A stretch of DNA of 16,435 bases from a virus (IMGVR_UViG_2690315742_000009:1-16435), one strand, 5' to 3'; positions 1 to 14,740 are shown, counted from the first letter of the stretch. The notes: generated from the sequence alone by a model not told the origin. Made by a program: numbers and translations.

Positions 1-1119
1 TCAAATAACCAACTTAACCCATTCCTGACCTCGAGTATCGTTATAGCGATCGGTGGTTGCCTGGACTTTATGTCCTAGTAATGTTTTTGTATCAATACCC
101 TGTGCACGGTACAGCCGTTCTGATAGAGAGCGTTGTTCATGAAATGTTGGCGGAGTTTTTCCTGCTGGTGGAATTATCCCAGCCAGATCCCGTGCTTTGG
201 CAAAGTAGTCGCTCAGGTTGTCTTTACTCATCGGCTTCGGTTGTTTCTGGTGCCGACTATGGATTAGATATGGACTTAATATTCTGTCTCGGCACCCATC
301 AATAACTTCTTTTAACGTTATCCCAATGGCATCACATCGTAGTGTAAGCGGTAACGCCAGACGCATTCCGGTTTTTCCCTGGGTGATATGCAAGTGTTCG
401 TTCCACACATCTGAAAAACGCATGTGGCAAATGTCATCACGGCGCTGACCAGTAACAATCGCAAGAAGCATTGCGTTACGGATAAAGTGTTTTTCAGGCG
501 TTGCATTGTAAATTTTTTGCCAGTCTTCCATGGTGAGCCTGGCTCTGGTTACTTTAGGGATCGGTTTACGGGTAGCCTCCGGAGGATTCCATCCAGGAGG
601 AACTTCCCCTGCATGCTGTGCTTCTTTATAAATATCAACCCATAATCCACGATTTACTCTCGCTGTGCTGACCATGTCTTTATCCAGCCACTCATCCAGT
701 ATTAATGCAAAGTCTCTTACTTCCAGTTCTTTCAATGGGTGGTTTCCCAGACGGGAAACCAGGTATGCAGCCATTCGGGTTTTTTCTTTGTGAGTTGTAG
801 CTGCAATATCTCCATTTTTCAGTCGCGTGTCCTGTATTTTCAGATATCGATCAACCCATGCCTTTAATCTGATACCCCGACGTTTTGTTGCTGACGGACT
901 TTCATCAATTTTGCGCATGAAATATTCAGCTTCTGCTGCAGCTATTCGCTGATTGGCTGTGGAAGCGATTTTTTCTGCCTTACCTTTGTCTGTTCCGAGT
1001 CCGTGAAATTTTCCAGTCACAGGATTTTTATACTGGTAGTAAACTCTGCCAGTTCTGCGATCAAACTTTTCGTAAAGACCGGCTACGTCAGTGCTGTTTT
1101 TTCGTGGCCTCGGTGACAT
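1..1119 (-). CDS. int: Phage-type tyrosine recombinase (integrase)
   Basis: 372-aa ORF, ATG at 1117-1119 with AGGAG about 12 nt upstream, TGA at 1-3. C-terminal half has the R...H-x-x-R...Y arrangement of tyrosine recombinases (TGQRRDD, HEQRS, TDRY). Excisionase-like gene lies immediately upstream, overlapping by about 30 nt. Confidence 0.85.
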   Translation of the reverse strand: MSPRPRKNSTDVAGLYEKFDRRTGRVYYQYKNPVTGKFHGLGTDKGKAEKIASTANQRIAAAEAEYFMRKIDESPSATKRRGIRLKAWVDRYLKIQDTRLKNGDIAATTHKEKTRMAAYLVSRLGNHPLKELEVRDFALILDEWLDKDMVSTARVNRGLWVDIYKEAQHAGEVPPGWNPPEATRKPIPKVTRARLTMEDWQKIYNATPEKHFIRNAMLLAIVTGQRRDDICHMRFSDVWNEHLHITQGKTGMRLALPLTLRCDAIGITLKEVIDGCRDRILSPYLIHSRHQKQPKPMSKDNLSDYFAKARDLAGIIPPAGKTPPTFHEQRSLSERLYRAQGIDTKTLLGHKVQATTDRYNDTRGQEWVKLVI

Positions 1120-1357
1120 GAGTTAAAATCTCCTTCAGTGCATCATCATCGCCAGTATGAATTTCCGGCGCAATTCCCGTTTCACCAGGCCCAACAAATA
1201 CTGCTCGGCGATCTATCAGCCAACGCCCACGAATTTTTTGTGGCCTTGGAACGATGTATCCTAGTTTTCCGTATTTCACCAGGGTAGTGTTTGTTATTGG
1301 GAGACTGAACCGTTTTGGTTTCCACTCGTCGAGCGTTATCAGGTACTGTTCGCTCAT
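1088..1357 (-). CDS. Excisionase-like small protein (DUF1233-type putative Xis)
   Basis: 89 aa from ATG at 1355-1357 with GGAG 8 nt upstream; the track's longer start is a GTG three codons earlier. Position directly upstream of and overlapping int is the classic xis position. Family assignment is from memory. Confidence 0.6.
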   Translation of the reverse strand: MSEQYLITLDEWKPKRFSLPITNTTLVKYGKLGYIVPRPQKIRGRWLIDRRAVFVGPGETGIAPEIHTGDDDALKEILTHVTEATKKQH

Positions 1358-1418
1358 GGCTATCACTCCGGAACGCGCCAGTTGCAGAATATCAACGACA
1401 ACTGGCGACGGTTGAACA

Positions 1419-3860
1419 TTAAAAATCAGCCTGACTCGGGATCAGTTTTTGCCAGATAACTGAAACGTATTTTGCCTGGTAACGAGCGTCATCAAGTGCA
1501 TTATGGCGCTCACCTTCGAATGGAATAGCCGTTCTGGCATCGAAGTCTATGGCTTTCCCCAGCTCAACGATTGTGCGTACATCGCGATCGTTGTAGTAAC
1601 GCCACGGGCAGGGGATCCCCTGCCGTTCGTATGAACGGCGCAAAATCGTGTTGTCGAAGTTGGCTCCATTTCCCCAGACCTGAACAAAAAATTCACCGGA
1701 GTTTTCGTCGATAAATTCCCGCAATTGTAACAGTGCATCATCTAACGGGATTTCATCGGTCATAATGGCAGATTGCGCTTCGCGTGATTGCTTAAGCCAC
1801 CATTTAATGGTGTCCCGATCAATGACTCCGCCAGCAGTTTCCAGATCGATAGTCTTACTAAATTCCGGTCCCATATCTCCGGTTTGCGGATCGAAAAATA
1901 TTGCACCTATTGAGATGATCGGGGCATCAGGATTTTTTCCCATGGTTTCAAGGTCGATCATTAGATGGTCACACGTCCTGCTGGTGGATGTGATTTCGTG
2001 ATGACCGTTCACCTTAATTGAGTGATCTGCCGTCTCGCCAGTTTTATTATCGCTGGCGTGATGCTGATTGCCGCCAGGGTTCTCCTTGTGTGGATGTTCA
2101 GCGCCTTCCATTTCCTCCGGATCATTTTCCTGAACTTCAACCTGATTCTCTTCATCGAATGTTTCCTGGTATGTTGCGTCGCCCATCACCGCGCCACAAT
2201 CAGGGCAGTTGCCGCCACCGCTCTGACCGCAGGCGGTGCAGACTTTTTCCGGTTCCTGTTGCGCTACTGGTTCGGATTGTTTCGTTTCTGGCTCGTTTTG
2301 TAACGCATTTGGGCTGTTTTGTTCCGCTTTTTGGTCGTTCCGTTCCGATTCATGCTGGTTCTGGTTCACAGAATCGCGAGTCTGGATCCCCTTGACCCAT
2401 TTCGGATCATTAGGGTCGCTAATCCCCTCAACAAATTCACCACGCGATACAGCAAGTAACTTATCGGCGTCAGGCTGGCTGATATTGGCTGCCTGCATAA
2501 TTTTGTTTACTTCGTCAGCGGTGACTTTTACTTGGTTAGCGGAACTCACCTGCGACTGAGCATCCAGCGACTGCGCGTTCTGGCCATGTTCAGTTGTATC
2601 CGGTTCCATTGTTTCAGTTGTTGCCTGTTCACCTGCCATTGCGTCAGATGGTTGTGGTTTTTCTTCTTCTGTTTCACGCTCAGTAACCACCTCGCGGTTA
2701 ATTTCTTCCAGGATATCTTTTTCCGGCGTATGCCGGGCAGCTGTGAGAGTTTCCTTGCTGGGGTTCTCGTGATCAGTTTCCGTCAAATAGGCGTTGATAT
2801 ACCCCTGAAGGCGTCCCGGGTAGTGATAAAATTCAGGGTGTGCGCTTCGGATAAGTGCAAAAATAGCGGCGCGGGAATAGTCCAGAATACCCGGGGTTGC
2901 ACGAAGTGCTGCGGACCATTCTTTGAACGGACTTTCTTTGTTCAGGACTACTTCTTTTGCGCGACGATAAACGCTGCCCGGAATTTCATAAATATTAAAA
3001 TCCATCGGAAGTGTGGCTGCTGCAATCTCCACATCCAGTGTGTCGAGGGTGTGTACTAAATTCGGATTGCGATCGGTTTTGTTCCCACCGCCAGCATTAG
3101 CACCGGAAGCCGTGCGGGTGATGCGTGAAACACGATTTCCTTTCATCCACTCTTTTGTCAGCAGACCCCGATCAGTGTAGTCAGCGTCCAGGTATGCTTC
3201 GAAAAAAGCAGTTATTAGTCCCAGGTCTGAATTACCAGGATTAGGGAAAACTTTGTCAGTGTCACGAACCAGTTTGTGGAGGTCGCGAATCTCCAGCGAG
3301 TCGAGCAGACTGGTTTTATGCGAAATAGCCAGGGCAGTAACAGCCGGTAGTTCTTCAGCCCGTGCAATGTGTAATGCCTGGAGTTCGTCGCGTGAAACGT
3401 GCGTTACTGGTTTTTCGCTGCCGTGTTGAGCAAGCCAACGAATGGGCAGTTCCTGACCGGAGACAGGCAGAAGCATGCTCTCCTCAATCTCAGTCATGTC
3501 TTCGCCGTTGATGTTGGTATTGTCAGTGCTGGCTGGTTTGTCCTGAACAGAGGGGGAAGGGCCGATAAATGTCATTGTGATGCCATCTTTCCCGCCTTTT
3601 TCATAGCGGTTGCAGAATTCAGTATCAAACACGCCTTCTGGCGGAAGGTCGTCAACAACGGGCAAATTGACGCGGACGGGTTTTTTAAAGTCGTCTTCAT
3701 CATAATCGTTGTCATCCATTGCGGTAATGCAGCGGGAGATTGCAACAGATAATTTTTTTGCTGTAGTCCAGTAAAAACCACCTTTAATTCCCAGGCGTTT
3801 TCTTACTTTGTCATTTTTTGCTTCGCAATATAGTGCAAATTCTTCTTTATCAGTGCTCAT
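1419..3860 (-). CDS. Exonuclease: RecE-like N-terminal region fused to a DEDDh (DnaQ-like) 3'-5' exonuclease domain
   Basis: 813-aa ORF, ATG at 3858-3860 with GAGG upstream. Residues about 110-600 closely resemble the non-catalytic N-terminal part of Rac RecE as I recall it (e.g. [71 protein letters not shown]). The C-terminal 200 aa carry DEDDh motifs (DLETMG; [12 protein letters not shown]; [13 protein letters not shown]) in place of the RecE nuclease domain. A long acidic low-complexity linker lies between. Confidence 0.8.
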
Positions 3861-3953
3861 TATTGGTAAACCTCATCACAGATTTAAGGGTGAACAAATC
3901 TCTGCCATTGCTGACATATAAGAATGAAACTGGATATTTATTACGGTGCTGTT

Positions 3954-4145
3954 TTAAAATCCTGCCGGGATTTCGTTATTATCCTGGTGAATAACTTTAT
4001 CGACCGGATAACAGTTGCCTGGAATTTTCTGTTCGGTTGCTGCTGCCATACATTCCTGCATTGTTCTGTGAACACTGACTGCAATATCAACTGGCTCTCC
4101 GGAAACAAGAAAAACCGTCAGAATAAGTGCAAATACTGGATTCAT
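3954..4145 (-). CDS. ydfD: YdfD-like small lysis protein (63 aa, N-terminal hydrophobic segment)
   Basis: ATG at 4143-4145 overlaps the dicB stop (ATGA). Protein MNPVFALILTVFLVSGEPVDIAVSVHRTMQECMAAATEQKIPGNCYPVDKVIHQDNNEIPAGF matches my memory of Qin YdfD in length and sequence. TAA at 3954-3956. Confidence 0.7.
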   Translation of the reverse strand: MNPVFALILTVFLVSGEPVDIAVSVHRTMQECMAAATEQKIPGNCYPVDKVIHQDNNEIPAGF

Positions 4146-4330
4146 TGTGCACATCCTTTTGGCATCAGACGTAAACGGGCCAGCATTGAAACAATGCATA
4201 CTTTATTTAATAACTCCCGTTCGTGTTTTCTTTTGTTAATGGCATCTTCAGTAAATACAGGATTACTGATAGTGACACCAATTTCAAAACAACCTTCAGA
4301 CGTATTAACGTTTGGTAATAACGTTTTCAT
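4142..4330 (-). CDS. dicB: Cell division inhibitor DicB (62 aa)
   Basis: ATG at 4328-4330 with GAGGG about 7 nt upstream; the track's GTG at 4435 is an upstream extension. Protein MKTLLPNVNTSEGCFEIGVTISNPVFTEDAINKRKHERELLNKVCIVSMLARLRLMPKGCAQ matches recalled DicB of the Qin dicBF operon. Lies immediately downstream of DicF. Confidence 0.75.
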   Translation of the reverse strand: MKTLLPNVNTSEGCFEIGVTISNPVFTEDAINKRKHERELLNKVCIVSMLARLRLMPKGCAQ

Positions 4331-4503
4331 TATCGCGCCCTCAACAATGAGTTTTGTGATGCGGTGCCTGGTGCCTCCAGGTGACGTTAACCAGTTAACA
4401 ATTAACGCCGGATACAGAGAATCCACCCATAACACTGTTTTTGGTTTTAACTGTTCCGCGTGCGCTTAGCCGCATTCACCGCATCACAAAATTCACTTTA
4501 AAA

Positions 4504-4556
4504 AGGGCGGCAGAGCAGTCACGGAGTAAAACTGATACCGCCAAACGTCACCAGAA
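4504..4556 (-). ncRNA. dicF: DicF small RNA (53 nt)
   Basis: Minus strand reads TTTCTGGTGACGTTTGGCGGTATCAGTTTTACTCCGTGACTGCTCTGCCGCCC followed by TTTT, which matches the 53-nt E. coli DicF sequence as I recall it. Contains a GC-rich terminator stem (GGCGG...CCGCC) and sits between a ydfC-like ORF and dicB as in the Qin operon. Confidence 0.8.
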
Positions 4557-4898
4557 AATTGATAACAGAGGGCGTTGCAGTGGGGTTGTCACTTAAGCGT
4601 ATGGTCAACCTGACAACCCGGTGTCCTCAACGGGGGAAGGAATAACCCCGCCATACTTACCGCCGCGCCATTTCGCGGATTGCCACAACCGGAAGCGCAC
4701 GGTCGACGAAAATTTAACGACAGGCTATCTATGAACCAGCTACCTCGCCGTGCGCTTTCGCGTTATGGTCTGACTTTTCAGGGAAATATCCTTTCAGTAA
4801 ACTGTCAGTGCCGGATGCTCACCCGTGTCCGGCGCACGCACTCCACCTCACCCGTGGAGAACTCCTTAATTACCAACCTTAGCTTCGTTGGTTAGCTA

Positions 4899-5117
4899 TT
4901 AACGCTGGTATGTAATCATTCTGGCAATGCTTAATGCCGCTGCTTTTTCCAGCCTGGTGATATCCTGCTCCAGAGCGGACAGATTTTCAGCCTGCTTAGC
5001 CCTGGCTTCATTGGCCCATTTCAGATCCTGCGCTGCATTAATTTTCTGGCGCATCCACTCATAAAGTTCATCATCGGTATAGTCTGGCGCGATGATGACG
5101 GGTTCTCGTTTCTGCAT
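4899..5117 (-). CDS. Small protein in ydfC position of the dicBF operon (72 aa)
   Basis: ATG at 5115-5117 preceded by a strong SD (AAGGAG, 7-nt spacer). Same length and operon position as Qin YdfC; sequence identity not verified. Confidence 0.6.
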   Translation of the reverse strand: MQKREPVIIAPDYTDDELYEWMRQKINAAQDLKWANEARAKQAENLSALEQDITRLEKAAALSIARMITYQR

Positions 5118-5188
5118 GTCGGCTCCTTGTGGTTAGCGTTGCCTGCTTTTAACCACGTCAGGCGAGGTGGTATCCTCTGAGGGGTCTG

Positions 5189-5545
5189 TTACTCGAGAGG
5201 AAATTGGTTATGAATACAATCAAGTTTTCTTGCCCAGAATGTGGTGGCGAAGTCTTTGACACATCCTTTAAGCCGCAGGGCTCTGACAGTTTCGCGGGAG
5301 CCATCTGCAAAAATTGTGGTCACCTTGTAACTGAAGATGAGTCCTCGCAGTTCGATGACGAAATCGTTGACAATATCTTCGGTGCACTCACCAGAGACTT
5401 TCTGAAATAAAGACGCATACCGCTTAGTTACCGCTCTGATAACTCTTACCTGTCCGGCAATGGCGCTGATGTCAATATAAAGCGCCATTGCTGCTTCTTT
5501 GCCGATCCCGTGATGCCTTCCATTCTGATGTTTGACTTCGCCCAC
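5189..5545 (-). CDS. Hypothetical protein (118 aa from GTG, or 99 aa from ATG at 5488); competing call with the plus-strand ORF 5210..5410
   Basis: Co-directional with the early-left operon. GTG at 5543-5545 preceded by AGAGGA (9 nt). Codon first-position G is about 44 percent in the non-overlapping part 5411-5545. Lies where ydfA/ydfB-type genes would be expected by synteny. It shares exact codon triplets in antisense with the plus-strand zinc-ribbon ORF, so one of the two is probably an artifact. Confidence 0.35.
   Translation of the reverse strand: MGEVKHQNGRHHGIGKEAAMALYIDISAIAGQVRVIRAVTKRYASLFQKVSGECTEDIVNDFVIELRGLIFSYKVTTIFADGSRETVRALRLKGCVKDFATTFWARKLDCIHNQFPLE
5210..5410 (+). CDS. 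Small acidic zinc-ribbon protein (66 aa); competing call with the minus-strand ORF 5189..5545
   Basis: ATG at 5210 with GAGAGG about 10 nt upstream. Two CxxCG knuckles 20 residues apart (CPECGG ... CKNCGH) form a canonical zinc-ribbon signature; acidic C-terminus. Opposite in orientation to the surrounding operon. Confidence 0.4.
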   Translation: MNTIKFSCPECGGEVFDTSFKPQGSDSFAGAICKNCGHLVTEDESSQFDDEIVDNIFGALTRDFLK

Positions 5546-5727
5546 TGAGAAATCCTCTGTTTCCCCTTAACGCCGGGGTAGCGGAACAAAAACCTGCTGC
5601 ATAGTTAAAGTTGAACCCTGCCGTCATGTTCTTACGCCTCGGGCTGGCTACTTAACCCCTGACCACTGCCTGGTAACTCGAAGTATTGCCCTGCATTCTG
5701 TGGGGCGGGGTGGGTTGGTATGTTGTT

Positions 5728-5756
5728 AAGGTAACAAGAGTTACCTTTAGAGTCAA
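5728..5756 (-). promoter_or_regulatory. pL-like early leftward promoter with overlapping repressor operator
   Basis: Minus strand reads TTGACT, 17-nt spacer, TACCTT. An 18-bp perfect palindrome AGGTAACAAGAGTTACCT (plus 5729-5746) overlaps the spacer and -10. Sits just downstream of the repressor gene terminator, facing the dicBF-exo-xis-int operon. Confidence 0.5.
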
Positions 5757-5786
5757 TACAATGTTGCAAAAGGTACATTTGAGGGC

Positions 5787-5811
5787 ATAAAAAACCCGCA
5801 ATGAATGCGGG
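5787..5811 (-). terminator. Rho-independent terminator after the repressor gene
   Basis: Minus strand CCCGCA-TTCAT-TGCGGG followed by TTTTTTAT; 6-bp GC-rich stem immediately after the repressor stop codon (5819-5821). Confidence 0.7.
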
Positions 5812-5818
5812 TTCTGAC

Positions 5819-6493
5819 TCAGTCTAAGTATTGATGTATTTGTGAAACTTTACCTTTAATGGTGTAACCACCATTCAGTTCGATGGGTTTGTAAAGCGGA
5901 TTCAGTGACAACAGATAGATGTTTGGTCCGTCAATCGCAACTTTTTTTAGTGTTACGTTTGGCGTTCCTTCCAATTGGATTAAGATTATTTTTCCCACCA
6001 GTTCTCTAATGTTACTTGAGCATGGTGTGATCAGCACGGTAGATCCGTCGGGGATGGTTGGGAGGCCGTTAGAGTTTGTCATCGCATCTCCCTCAACATG
6101 CAATAAAAAAGAGTTTTCAGCGGTTTTTGTCATGACATCAACCCAATTCTTAATACCAGGAATCTCGGTTACTGGACAACTCATATCCCAATAACCAGCC
6201 TGTTCCCACGTTAAAACGGGCAACCGGGCGATGTTGTCACTAATGTAAGGGTACTGATTCAGACGCAGATCATCGGTTTTATCGTGACAGTCCTTTCCAT
6301 AAAGAATCCATTCAGGAGATTTGGAAAGCAATTTTGACAGTAGATGCAAATTCTCACCGTCAGGTTTTGAAGAGCCATTTTCCCATTTTGTTACGGATAC
6401 ACGAGATATGCCGATTGCTTTCGCAACCTGCTGTTGGGTTAATCCAACGTCTTTTCGACGATTCCGAATACGTTCGCTGATAGTGTTTTTCAT
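5819..6493 (-). CDS. cI-like prophage repressor (N-terminal XRE-type HTH plus C-terminal S24/LexA-like peptidase domain)
   Basis: HTH signature LTQQQVAKAIGISRVSVTKWENG near the N-terminus and a LexA/cI-like C-terminal domain. Preferred start is ATG at 6491-6493 (224 aa, no SD, operator abutting, suggesting a leaderless transcript as for lambda cI). Alternative ATG at 6536; the track's TTG at 6592 would overlap the cro-like start. Confidence 0.85.
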   Translation of the reverse strand: MKNTISERIRNRRKDVGLTQQQVAKAIGISRVSVTKWENGSSKPDGENLHLLSKLLSKSPEWILYGKDCHDKTDDLRLNQYPYISDNIARLPVLTWEQAGYWDMSCPVTEIPGIKNWVDVMTKTAENSFLLHVEGDAMTNSNGLPTIPDGSTVLITPCSSNIRELVGKIILIQLEGTPNVTLKKVAIDGPNIYLLSLNPLYKPIELNGGYTIKGKVSQIHQYLD

Positions 6494-6509
6494 GTAACCA
6501 ATGTTACTA
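6492..6509. promoter_or_regulatory. Operator-like palindrome (ATGTAAC-CAAT-GTTACTA) at the repressor start; PRM-like region
   Basis: Third copy of GTAAC-N4-GTTAC, directly abutting the repressor ATG. A TAACAT -10-like hexamer lies 7 nt upstream of the ATG on the minus strand. Confidence 0.45.
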
Positions 6510-6528
6510 CCAAGTGATGTTGCTATGG

Positions 6529-6558
6529 TTGACATTGCTATGTAACTATTGTTACCCT
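6529..6558 (+). promoter_or_regulatory. pR-like early rightward promoter with overlapping operator
   Basis: TTGACA (6529-6534), 18-nt spacer, TACCCT (6553-6558). Palindrome GTAACTATTGTTAC (6542-6555) overlaps the spacer and -10, mirroring the pL-like architecture. SD AGGAG and the cro-like ATG follow at 6585. Confidence 0.5.
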
Positions 6559-6584
6559 CCCGCTCGAAATAACAGGAGAGTTTT

Positions 6585-6797
6585 ATGTTCAAAGATGATG
6601 TTCTGCGCTATTTCAAAAAAAAGCGACTAGTAGCTGAGGCTCTTGGAATTTCACATGTGGCTGTTGTGCGGTGGAAAGCAGTTATTCCCAAACTTCGCGC
6701 AATGGAACTGGATGAAATTACTAACGGTGAATTGAAATACAACCCAGAACTTTACAAGAAGCAGGATAGCACCTCGAACGAAGGAAAGAATGATTAA
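6585..6797 (+). CDS. Cro/DicC-like small HTH regulator (70 aa)
   Basis: Divergent from the repressor; AGGAG 7 nt upstream of ATG. Sequence pattern (LRYF...LVAEALGISHVAVVRWKA...RAMELDEITNGELKYNPELY) resembles DicC/YdaS-type Cro-like proteins from memory. Stop overlaps the next gene's start by 1 nt. Confidence 0.75.
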   Translation: MFKDDVLRYFKKKRLVAEALGISHVAVVRWKAVIPKLRAMELDEITNGELKYNPELYKKQDSTSNEGKND

Positions 6798-7222
6798 TGA
6801 AAATCAAGCATGAACACATCCGCATGGCGATGAATGCCTGGGCGCATCCGGACGGCGAAAAAGTACCGGCTGCGAAAATTACCAAAGCGTATTTCGAGCT
6901 GGGAATGACGTTCCCGGAACTGTATGACGACAGCCATCCGGAAGCCCTGGCTCGCAATACTCAGAAAATATTCCGCTGGGTGGAGAAAGACACCCCTGAT
7001 GCTGTTGAAAAAATTCAGGCGTTGTTACCAGCGATCGAAAAAGCAATGCCACCTCTGCTGGTGGCCCGAATGCGCAGCCACAGTTCAGCCTATTTTCGGG
7101 AGCTGGTGGAGATGCGGGAACGACTGGTGAGAGACGCTGATGATTTTGTCGCAGTGGCGATCGCTGGTTTCAATCAGATGAATCGTGGTGGTCCGGCGGG
7201 AAATGCCGTGGTGGTGCATTGA
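6797..7222 (+). CDS. cII-position regulator (YdaT-like, 141 aa)
   Basis: Translationally coupled to the cro-like gene (TAATG overlap). Sits between cro-like and replication genes, i.e. the cII position. N-terminus MKIKHEHI resembles Rac YdaT as I recall it; unverified. Confidence 0.55.
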   Translation: MKIKHEHIRMAMNAWAHPDGEKVPAAKITKAYFELGMTFPELYDDSHPEALARNTQKIFRWVEKDTPDAVEKIQALLPAIEKAMPPLLVARMRSHSSAYFRELVEMRERLVRDADDFVAVAIAGFNQMNRGGPAGNAVVVH

Positions 7223-11356: not shown

Positions 11357-11475
11357 TGCAGCGGGTGCTTGAGGCTATCTGTCTCAGGCATGAACACCAA
11401 AAGGCAGATAGAGAAAAGCCCCAGTTAACATTACGCGTCCTGCAAGACGCTTAACATTAATCTGAGGCCATATCT

Positions 11476-11535
11476 ATGCGACACATAGAGATTAGCCTCT
11501 TACGGACCGAAAGGTCAAGGAGAAGCAGGCTATGA
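11476..11535 (+). CDS. Short upstream reading frame coupled to hok (mok-like, 19 codons)
   Basis: ATG at 11476; its TGA overlaps the hok ATG (ATGA). Analogous to mok-dependent translational coupling in hok/sok loci, but much shorter than classical mok. Confidence 0.3.
   Translation: MRHIEISLLRTERSRRSRL
11489..11518 (-). promoter_or_regulatory. Candidate promoter for a Sok-like antisense RNA
   Basis: Minus strand TTGACC (plus 11513-11518), 18-nt spacer, TAATCT (plus 11489-11494). Predicted antisense start near 11482, reading across the start of the upstream coupled frame. Confidence 0.4.
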
Positions 11536-11687
11536 AGCAGCAAAAGGCGATGTTAATCGCCCTGATCGTCATCTGTTTAACCGTCATAGTGACGGCACTG
11601 GTAACGAGGAAAGACCTCTGCGAGGTACGAATCCGAACCGGCCAGACGGAGGTCGCTGTCTTCACAGCTTACGAACCTGAGGAGTAA
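11532..11687 (+). CDS. hokD: Hok/Gef-family type I toxin (51 aa)
   Basis: AAGGAG SD. Protein MKQQKAMLIALIVICLTVIVTALVTRKDLCEVRIRTGQTEVAVFTAYEPEE has a single transmembrane helix plus a conserved Cys-containing periplasmic tail, and matches my memory of HokD (RelF). Confidence 0.85.
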   Translation: MKQQKAMLIALIVICLTVIVTALVTRKDLCEVRIRTGQTEVAVFTAYEPEE

Positions 11688-11783: not shown

Positions 11784-11854
11784 CTGGCATTCTGGTTTAC
11801 AATTCGCACGCCAGCCTGAACAACTGGCACCTGCTGCGCCAGCAGAGACAACCG

Positions 11855-12127
11855 ATGGCGCACAATACCAAATATCACAATTCTGATACCGACCTTGCCA
11901 GCAGGTGCGGGCTGTGTTCTCACGCATTCAAATATGACTGGTATCAGCACGATCCCTGCACTGAAGAACAGGCCGAATGGCTGATTCATAACTACCGCAG
12001 ACGTGGGTATGAGTTTAAGAAAGCCCTTAGCCTCGACTACCGTCACTGGATAATCTACGTCAGGCTCCCTTATTCCGAACGCCCGCCGCGTCCGTCCCGC
12101 ACATTCCAGCAACGCATCTGGAGGTAA
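11855..12127 (+). CDS. Small Cys/His-containing protein in the position of Qin rem (90 aa)
   Basis: ATG at 11855. The track's upstream start at 11726 would run through the hok terminator hairpin, so I truncated it. Contains CGLCSHAFKYDWYQHDPC. GGAGG near its 3' end serves the next gene. Confidence 0.5.
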   Translation: MAHNTKYHNSDTDLASRCGLCSHAFKYDWYQHDPCTEEQAEWLIHNYRRRGYEFKKALSLDYRHWIIYVRLPYSERPPRPSRTFQQRIWR

Positions 12128-14430: not shown

Positions 14431-14506
14431 GGCCCTTTAGCTCAGTGGTGAGAGCGAGCGACTCATAATCGCCAGGTCGCTGGTTCAAATCCAGCAAGGG
14501 CCACCA
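14431..14506 (+). tRNA. tRNA with CAU anticodon (Ile2-lysidine type or elongator Met)
   Basis: Hand-folded cloverleaf: acceptor GGCCCTT/AAGGGCC, D-stem GCTC/GAGC, anticodon loop CTCATAA, T-loop TTCAAAT, encoded CCA. Close to E. coli ileX as recalled. Confidence 0.8.
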
Positions 14507-14507
14507 G

Positions 14508-14584
14508 CCGCCACTAGCTCATCAGGAAAGAGCGTCAACCCTTTAAGTTGAGTGTGCGAGGTTCGAGTCCCCGGTGGCGGTCCA
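14508..14584 (+). tRNA. tRNA-like gene with unusual anticodon loop CCTTTAA (nominal anticodon UUU, Lys-type; C at position 33)
   Basis: Cloverleaf folds: acceptor CCGCCAC/GTGGCGG, D-stem GCTC/GAGC, perfect anticodon stem TCAAC/GTTGA, T-loop TTCGAGT, encoded CCA. T-stem has one A-C mismatch and position 33 is C, not the near-universal U. Confidence 0.55.
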
Positions 14585-14586
14585 GT

Positions 14587-14662
<76 letters not shown>

Positions 14663-14665
14663 TAT

Positions 14666-14740
<75 letters not shown>

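Follow-up and report, generated by a model that had tools for sequence, protein, structure and literature searches.

The dicF-dicB-ydfD cassette of a Rac/Qin-like lambdoid prophage and its predicted control by an S24 repressor with alanine in place of the nucleophile serine

The cassette formed by DicF, DicB and YdfD, that is, a small RNA and two small proteins, halts division of the host cell. DicB resembles Kil of bacteriophage lambda, in that each is a small division inhibitor encoded within a pL-type operon and expressed upon derepression; the two nevertheless differ in their mode of action, with Kil acting on FtsZ via ZipA and DicB acting via MinC, and they share no sequence relationship. 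To our knowledge, lambda does not encode a DicF-like small RNA.

The operon was defined in the Qin prophage of Escherichia coli K-12, where it is transcribed from dicBp, a promoter resembling lambda pL, and lacks an internal promoter (PMC10448788). The 53-nt DicF of K-12 is processed out of the polycistronic RNA by RNases III and E, and Qin, which is repressed by DicA, is not induced by mitomycin C (PMC10448788). Several lambdoid prophages carry dicBF, with multiple copies having been published for O157:H7 and other EHEC (PMC5069750; PMC10448788), and it was stated in 2016 that DicB and DicF were found in no sequenced phage (PMC5069750).

The copy described here lies in a 16,435-nt viral sequence (IMGVR_UViG_2690315742_000009), which is referred to as the window and whose two ends are the stop codon of int and the lysozyme gene of the lysis cassette. 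A ydfC-dicF-dicB-ydfD block was located at 3954-5117 on the minus strand, with 96.4% DNA identity to the dicBF operon of K-12 Qin. In the order of transcription, its parts are:

4899-5117, minus strand: ydfC, 72 aa, orthologous to K-12 b1573 and annotated as ydfC in homologous loci
4558-4898, minus strand: ydfC-dicF spacer, 341 nt, 97.4% identical to K-12
4505-4557, minus strand: dicF, 53 nt, by Rfam RF00039 and identity to K-12 b1574
4331-4504, minus strand: dicF-dicB spacer, 97.1% identical to K-12
4142-4330, minus strand: dicB, 62-aa cell-division inhibitor, by PF05358, NF049927 and identity to K-12
3954-4145, minus strand: ydfD (DUF1482), 63 aa, by PF07358 and identity to K-12

The small RNA matched Rfam RF00039 at 4505-4556 over all 52 positions of the model (76.7 bits, gathering score 48, E=9e-16), and all 53 bases of K-12 dicF (b1574), including those that pair with ftsZ, were identical to 4505-4557. 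Its 3' end forms a terminator-like hairpin (GGCGG...CCGCC) followed by UUUUU, with a folding energy of -15.9 kcal/mol, whilst the fold of a 200-nt DicF precursor was unremarkable (z=-2.1). DicB matched PF05358 over its full length (E=5e-40, 135.4 bits against a cut-off of 27) as well as NCBIfam NF049927 (134.3 bits, cut-off 100), and was identical to K-12 DicB at 60 of 62 residues, the two substitutions being conservative (Q36H and I44V); given this near-identity, it would be expected to inhibit division in the same MinC-dependent manner. YdfD, whose start and the stop codon of dicB overlap within ATGA (4142-4145), matched PF07358 (E=4e-25, 87.9 bits against a cut-off of 25) and shared 56 of 63 residues with its K-12 counterpart, the coding DNA being 91.7% identical. 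YdfC, which occupies the same position upstream of dicF as K-12 YdfC (b1573) and is identical to it at 70 of 72 residues, had no match in Pfam or NCBIfam, its family being without a profile model; the gene is preceded by an AAGGAG Shine-Dalgarno sequence 6 nt before the ATG. These Rfam, Pfam/NCBIfam and K-12 alignments bear out the first-pass annotation, which had listed DicF, DicB, YdfD and a ydfC-sized gene with a strong Shine-Dalgarno sequence on the minus strand, although its coordinates for dicF (4504-4556) were one base off. Judged at the level of sequence, the identification of all four parts is of database grade and not a product of chance.

The non-coding parts of the module were 97-100% identical to K-12. 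Among five prophages, column identity was approximately 99% in the ydfC-dicF spacer and 99% across the non-coding bases between ydfC and dicB (n=568), which exceeds the 91.7% identity to K-12 of the ydfD coding sequence. Such conservation of the spacers is consistent with processing of DicF by RNases III and E, as occurs in K-12 (PMC10448788), and by analogy DicF would be released in the same way at the present locus, where the precursor region is 97.4% identical. The conservation could also be read as a sign that DicF has its own promoter within the ydfC-dicF spacer and is made in the lysogen whatever the state of the prophage switch; the 341-nt spacer is better conserved than the adjacent coding DNA, implying some function, and DicF accumulates in stationary-phase K-12 (PMC10448788). 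We consider this highly improbable, as primer extension and Northern blotting in K-12 detected no additional promoter within the operon (PMC10448788), a consensus scan of 4558-5117 returned no minus-strand promoter, and structures for RNase III and RNase E processing would account for the conservation of the spacer. A sub-threshold Rfam match to STnc100 was obtained within the dicF-dicB spacer at 4353-4493 (38.8 bits, gathering score 47); apart from this, a permissive Rfam search of 3800-6900 returned only a chance Trp_leader match on the repressor terminator.

The genes and sites surrounding the module were identified as follows:

1-1119, minus strand: lambda-type integrase gene (int), PF09003 and PF00589, at the end of the leftward operon
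1088-1366, minus strand: xis, PF07825, at the end of the leftward operon
1419-3860, minus strand: gene for an 813-aa protein with a RecE N-terminal region and an Rv2179c-like 3'-5' exonuclease domain (PF06630, PF16473)
5210-5410, plus strand: ECs_2282-family CxxC zinc-binding gene, 66 aa (NF047912, 57.3 bits against a cut-off of 37)
5560-5715, minus strand: early-left transcript leader, 156 nt, common to prophages of different immunity types
5756-5728, minus strand: candidate pL/dicBp-like promoter, TTGACT-17-TACCTT, by sequence and comparative position
5789-5813, minus strand: intrinsic terminator of the repressor transcript, AACCCGCATTCATTGCGGGTTTTTT, directly upstream of the pL-like promoter
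5819-6535, minus strand: CI-like repressor with HTH_3 and Peptidase_S24 domains (Pfam), 238 aa from ATG 6535 or 224 aa from ATG 6493
6494-6555, between repressor and cro: oR region with two perfect operators, GTAACCAATGTTAC at 6494-6507 and GTAACTATTGTTAC at 6542-6555
6585-6797, plus strand: cro-like gene (P22_Cro family; PF14549, E=2.8e-16), divergent from the repressor

The module is thereby placed as had been proposed at first, between an S24 repressor (5819-6493/6535, minus strand) and the exonuclease, xis and int genes (1-3860, minus strand). The locus shares with Qin (K-12 ydfABC-dicF-dicB-ydfDE, dicBp/DicA) its gene order, an identical DicF, the ATGA overlap of dicB and ydfD, and a promoter of the build TTGAC(C/T)-17-TAnnnT with an operator inside the spacer. 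It differs in that K-12 has ydfA-ydfB where the window has a 442-bp segment with the opposite-strand ECs_2282 zinc-ribbon gene, in that DicA is a 135-aa, HTH-only protein whereas the repressor here comprises 224 or 238 aa with both HTH and S24 domains, and in that exonuclease, xis and int are pseudogenes in K-12 but intact in the window. The 813-aa exonuclease gene, for instance, corresponds in intact form to ydfE, a K-12 pseudogene that holds the same position; family NF007259 covers only residues 1-615 of the 813-aa protein.

Searches with the 1164-bp block yielded matches in 4756 of 5426 complete E. coli genomes, with coverage of at least 80% in 2687 of the genomes searched, and the block was found at a median of two and up to ten places per genome. 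Sixty phage records also matched, six of them over the full length, and in the complete genome sequence of Tritos a misc_RNA is already annotated as 'DicF antisense sRNA, inhibits ftsZ'. The cassette lies between the immunity region and the exonuclease, xis and int genes both in these phages and in the HS4 and TUM9757 prophages; it is the same cassette in the same position in the CP-933/Sp prophages of O157:H7 and in phages Tritos, vB_EcoS-813R8, PhiR42_1 and PPompW. The 2016 statement on phages has since been overtaken by newer phage records, and the cassette is already known and very common, in its present genomic context too. An implied contrast in the first-pass annotation, between this prophage and the defective, DicA-controlled prophage of K-12, is likewise not new, given that dicBF is on record in large lambdoid prophages and in phages. 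The cassette itself adds nothing new, as dicF, dicB and ydfD are textbook prophage genes.

Given the defective state of Qin, where the operon was defined, and the absence of ydfA-ydfB at the present locus, it might be supposed that the cassette has lost its function and is decaying, or that it is an artefact of assembly or annotation. We regard this as scarcely conceivable: none of the three ORFs is disrupted, dicF does not differ from that of K-12, the exonuclease, xis and int genes are intact, unlike those of K-12, and the same gene arrangement recurs in hundreds of genomes.

The candidate promoter of the leftward operon consists of TTGACT (5756-5751) and TACCTT (5733-5728), separated by 17 nt, and the palindromic operator GTAACTCTTGTTAC at 5744-5731 is situated in this spacer and overlaps the -10 hexamer. 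Perfect copies of GTAAC-N4-GTTAC occur only three times in the 16.4-kb window (5731-5744, 6494-6507 and 6542-6555), against approximately 0.02 copies expected from base frequencies; when up to two mismatches were permitted, 12 matches were found compared with a mean of 4.4 in shuffled sequences. All three positions are kept in five other genomes, including one 83%-identical relative in which the spacer of oL differs and the half-sites are retained. The -10 hexamer is weak (three of six positions), and the promoter was not flagged by a generic promoter and terminator scan of 3700-6900, which returned sites in roughly the number expected by chance and no minus-strand promoter or terminator consensus between 4117 and 5727, an interval in which it also missed the DicF hairpin. 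As the scan had picked up neither the hairpin nor the pL candidate, the promoter was assessed by its position in relatives. The promoters of 813R8 (TTGACC-17-TAAACT) and Tritos (TTTACA-17-CATTAT) occupy the same position as the candidate with respect to the leader they share with the window, and K-12 dicBp (TTGACC-17-TAATCT), upstream of ydfA, has the same TTGAC-17-TAnnnT build. The dicBp start derived from the transcript lengths in PMC10448788 could not be reconciled with coordinates, and those values were not used. We accept 5756-5728 as a pL/dicBp-like promoter predicted to be under the control of the S24 repressor, in agreement with the pL-like promoter and early-left operon that had been suggested initially. 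Upstream of it, a 36-nt stretch around the repressor terminator folds at -15.1 kcal/mol.

A mosaic boundary follows directly after the promoter. Homology to Tritos and 813R8, which represent other immunity types, is absent from approximately 6791 to 5716 and begins just downstream of the promoter, at 5715 and 5712, respectively, which delimits an immunity-specific segment extending from the end of cro to just past the repressor gene. From 6900 to 5560 the window is 100% identical to TUM9757, and the last 28 nt of the leader match the K-12 sequence upstream of ydfA. The 442-bp segment at 5118-5559, bearing the ECs_2282-family gene, replaces ydfA-ydfB and differs from both K-12 and TUM9757, as delimited by blastn junctions; the same arrangement of the ECs_2282 gene is annotated in strain HS4. 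From the ydfC start onward, conservation relative to K-12 and TUM9757 is found throughout. On this comparison of sequences with its relatives, the region appears as a classic lambdoid mosaic. The opposite-strand gene at 5210-5410 could lower the share of transcripts from the promoter that reach ydfC. ORF and Pfam analyses of the interval from the promoter to ydfC revealed no N-like ORF; we know of no recognised N in Qin or Rac-type elements either.

The repressor gene lies outside 3954-5117, and the variant it encodes is the one item at this locus that we consider worth follow-up. Its product contains an N-terminal HTH domain (PF01381, E=2.5e-16) and a full-length C-terminal Peptidase_S24 domain (PF00717, E=1.3e-16), and aligns along its length to lambda CI (PDB 3bdn). 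Of the two possible starts, the 224-aa form from ATG 6493 is more likely than the 238-aa form, since this ATG adjoins an operator, and the mRNA would then be almost leaderless, as it is for lambda cI. The scissile Ala-Gly bond is kept at residues 112-113 (PVLTWEQAGYW, lambda PVFSHVQAGMF) and is conserved in close homologues, as is the catalytic lysine (TLKK, lambda FTFKK), with K197 and K198 invariant in the homologue alignment. The nucleophile serine, Ser149 of lambda CI, is replaced by Ala151, encoded by GCG (VEGDAMT, lambda VEGNSMT), such that the G-x-S-M motif is absent.

The GCG codon was also present in five other genomes, the carriers of alanine including HS4 and three further sampled E. 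coli with the same immunity region, and TUM9757, whose repressor gene is 100% identical to that of the window. Three clusters at 90% identity, drawn from E. coli, E. albertii and Salmonella, had alanine at this position in all members sampled, and a single one of these sequences was present on at least 1000 contigs. As the residue is fixed in all sampled close homologues, it is not a sequencing slip. The immunity region of this repressor was detected in 702 of the 5426 complete E. coli genomes (approximately 13%), ST131 strains included. Serine is retained in one E. coli cluster of 87% identity and throughout the more distant relatives, and is encoded by TCA in an O178:H19 strain, the one Ser-type copy read at the DNA level. 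In the C-terminal domain, this serine-bearing cluster is closer to the window (92.6% identity) than is the alanine-bearing Salmonella cluster (74.8%), which indicates that the change between serine and alanine arose more than once or reverted. HS4 and TUM9757 thus carry the same repressor as the window, whereas the immunity of Tritos is of another type, its CI being a 139-aa, HTH-only protein, and 813R8 differs in possessing an S24 CI with the serine present (ESDSMS).

The first-pass annotation had expected expression of the module to be coupled to SOS and prophage induction through the pL-like promoter. According to this explanation, the S24 repressor would cleave itself upon RecA activation, as in lambda, and SOS would directly switch on the pL operon including DicF and DicB. 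The full-length Peptidase_S24 domain, the lambda-like context of the Ala-Gly bond and the conserved lysine all speak for it, but a Ser-Lys dyad together with an Ala-Gly bond defines the self-cleaving S24 repressors (PMC8565304), and the serine of the dyad is missing here and from every close homologue sampled. The replacement makes direct RecA-stimulated self-cleavage unlikely. In work attributed to Slilaty and Little in 1987, the equivalent substitutions LexA S119A and lambda CI S149A reportedly abolished self-cleavage. The 50,697 phage records searched contained no repressor more than 43% identical to that of the window, an absence of isolated phages that is weak evidence against SOS induction, as serine-bearing relatives are equally absent from these records. 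Matches to the LexA box (CTGT-N8-ACAG, up to one mismatch) numbered three in the window against 5.1 expected, none of them in a promoter context, and thus gave no indication of a LexA-controlled antirepressor. Taken together, the lambda-like SOS explanation seems unlikely to us, and the proposed coupling is not supported by these comparisons. No antirepressor gene was identified in the window. A 92-aa ORF upstream of ydfU (11849-12127), which occupies the place of rem in Qin and was considered as a candidate for the Qin antirepressor Rem, had no BLASTP alignment to it and no NCBIfam match. Derepression would probably be brought about by an antirepressor supplied from elsewhere or by stochastic switching, as in Qin.

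We are thus fairly confident that the locus holds a dicBF cassette of the standard lambdoid kind, situated within the early-left operon of a lambdoid prophage of Rac/Qin-like type, and that its trigger is probably not RecA-stimulated self-cleavage. The DNA itself shows which four parts are present and in what order, the overlap of dicB and ydfD, the operators and terminator, and where the mosaic segments meet; the way such a copy might operate can be outlined from near-identity to K-12 and from published work. In a lysogen, the CI-like repressor would hold the operon off by binding its GTAAC-N4-GTTAC sites in oR and in the pL/dicBp-like promoter. Once the repressor is removed, a leftward transcript would begin with the conserved leader, run antisense across the zinc-ribbon gene and then enter ydfC; part of the transcripts would end at the DicF terminator hairpin, and part would continue into dicB-ydfD, the exonuclease gene, xis and int. 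Trimming by RNases III and E, on the model of K-12, would yield the 53-nt DicF. Near-identity to the K-12 counterparts suggests that DicF, with Hfq, would repress ftsZ, xylR and pykA, and that YdfD would be able to lyse cells (PMC10448788, PMC5069750, PMC6832061). On the same grounds, DicB with MinC would be expected to block Z-ring assembly and the ManYZ-dependent entry of phage DNA. Within the phage life cycle, the module may act as a functional counterpart of lambda kil.

The present repressor resembles GfoR and GtgR of the Gifsy prophages, DicA and RacR in its predicted insensitivity to RecA-stimulated self-cleavage (PMC3121763; PMC10448788). Those repressors, however, lack the whole S24 domain, whereas the present one keeps the domain, the Ala-Gly bond and the lysine and has lost the nucleophile alone. 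A literature search returned nothing specific on natural prophage S24 repressors with a serine-to-alanine replacement. Retention of Ala-Gly and lysine in a protein devoid of the serine could mean that cleavage continues, for example in trans. We judge the chances to be evenly balanced that this is a naturally nucleophile-dead S24 repressor, with Ala-Gly and lysine kept, which has been maintained in E. coli, E. albertii and Salmonella and which uncouples its prophages from direct RecA induction. If so, a large and common class of prophages that look to be of the LexA family, those of ST131 included, would be uncoupled in this way and would rely on an antirepressor, on trans-cleavage by a serine-bearing relative or on stochastic switching, and the control of DicF and DicB in such strains would be similar to that in Qin. 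Neither a prophage nor its DicF/DicB cargo can be called SOS-inducible on the strength of an S24 or 'LexA family' label alone, and for studies on the timing of DicF and DicB expression in clinical lineages, ST131 for example, it matters which type of repressor guards each copy.

The first-pass annotation had described an apparently complete prophage, a reading that the window, ending within the lysis cassette, does not support. The closest relative of the window, with 98.3% identity over 93% of its length, is the TUM9757 prophage, an intact-looking element of approximately 40 kb between potC and potB with a full set of head and tail genes. In the related prophage of HS4, the terminase gene is interrupted by an IS element.

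The immunity and replication region is Rac-like rather than lambda-like, since a YdaT-family gene (PF06254) occupies the position of cII and the cro gene is of the P22_Cro/YdaS type. The features of this region and of the early-left operon are as follows.

1419-3860, minus strand: early-left gene for an 813-aa fusion of the RecE N-terminus and an Rv2179c-like exonuclease
4331-4898, minus strand: non-coding stretch from ydfC to dicB
5210-5410, plus strand (opposite to the early-left operon): ECs_2282-family CxxC zinc-binding gene, 66 aa
5560-5715, minus strand: 156-nt leader, directly 3' of the predicted pL-like promoter
5819-6535, minus strand: CI-like S24 repressor gene, with an Ala codon (GCG) at 6083-6085
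6797-7222, plus strand: YdaT-family gene

This Ala codon falls at the catalytic Ser position of the repressor, whilst the other self-cleavage features of S24 repressors, namely the Ala-Gly site and Lys, are retained. The substitution was found to be fixed among the sampled close repressor homologues, which derived from E. coli, E. albertii and Salmonella, and the Ser is kept in a cluster of repressors of 87% identity. The immunity region itself is carried by 702 of the 5426 complete E. coli genomes.

The leader is approximately 97% conserved in Tritos and 813R8, dicBF-carrying phages with unrelated immunity types. It is not spanned by any conserved ORF and may possibly harbour a nut-like or processing element. 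Between the leader and ydfC, a 442-bp segment (5118-5559) stands in place of ydfA-ydfB and includes the ECs_2282-family gene, which, being encoded on the opposite strand, would be crossed antisense by early-left transcription. Just 3' of this gene, at 5457-5491, lies a perfect inverted repeat of 11 bp that could represent the gene's terminator.

When five prophages that differ in immunity type were compared, the non-coding stretch displayed a column identity of 99%. It is more conserved than the adjoining ydfD coding sequence, which is 91.7% identical to that of K-12. Within it, the dicF-dicB spacer (4353-4493) matched STnc100, a Salmonella sRNA family in Rfam, at a score below threshold (38.8 bits versus 47; E=3e-6).

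The 813-aa early-left protein combines the N-terminal ~600 residues of RecE (exonuclease VIII) with a C-terminal Rv2179c-like DEDD 3'-5' exonuclease domain, the latter replacing the nuclease domain of RecE. Its gene is intact, whereas the K-12 counterpart, ydfE, is a pseudogene; no RecT/Bet-like partner gene adjoins it.

Elsewhere, a hok/sok type I toxin-antitoxin locus was observed at 11363-11687 (plus strand), its sok RNA scoring 106.7 bits in Rfam. The ORF of this locus and a feature further downstream are:

11532-11687, plus strand: HokD-like ORF of 51 aa, following the sok RNA
14431-14737, plus strand: four tandem tRNA genes, between the Q antiterminator and holin genes

The homologous tRNA loci in the related prophages of E. 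coli HS4 and TUM9757 are annotated as Ile, Lys, Thr and Gly. Stx phages likewise carry tRNAs at the Q-holin position, together with stx, although no toxin gene is present there in the window.
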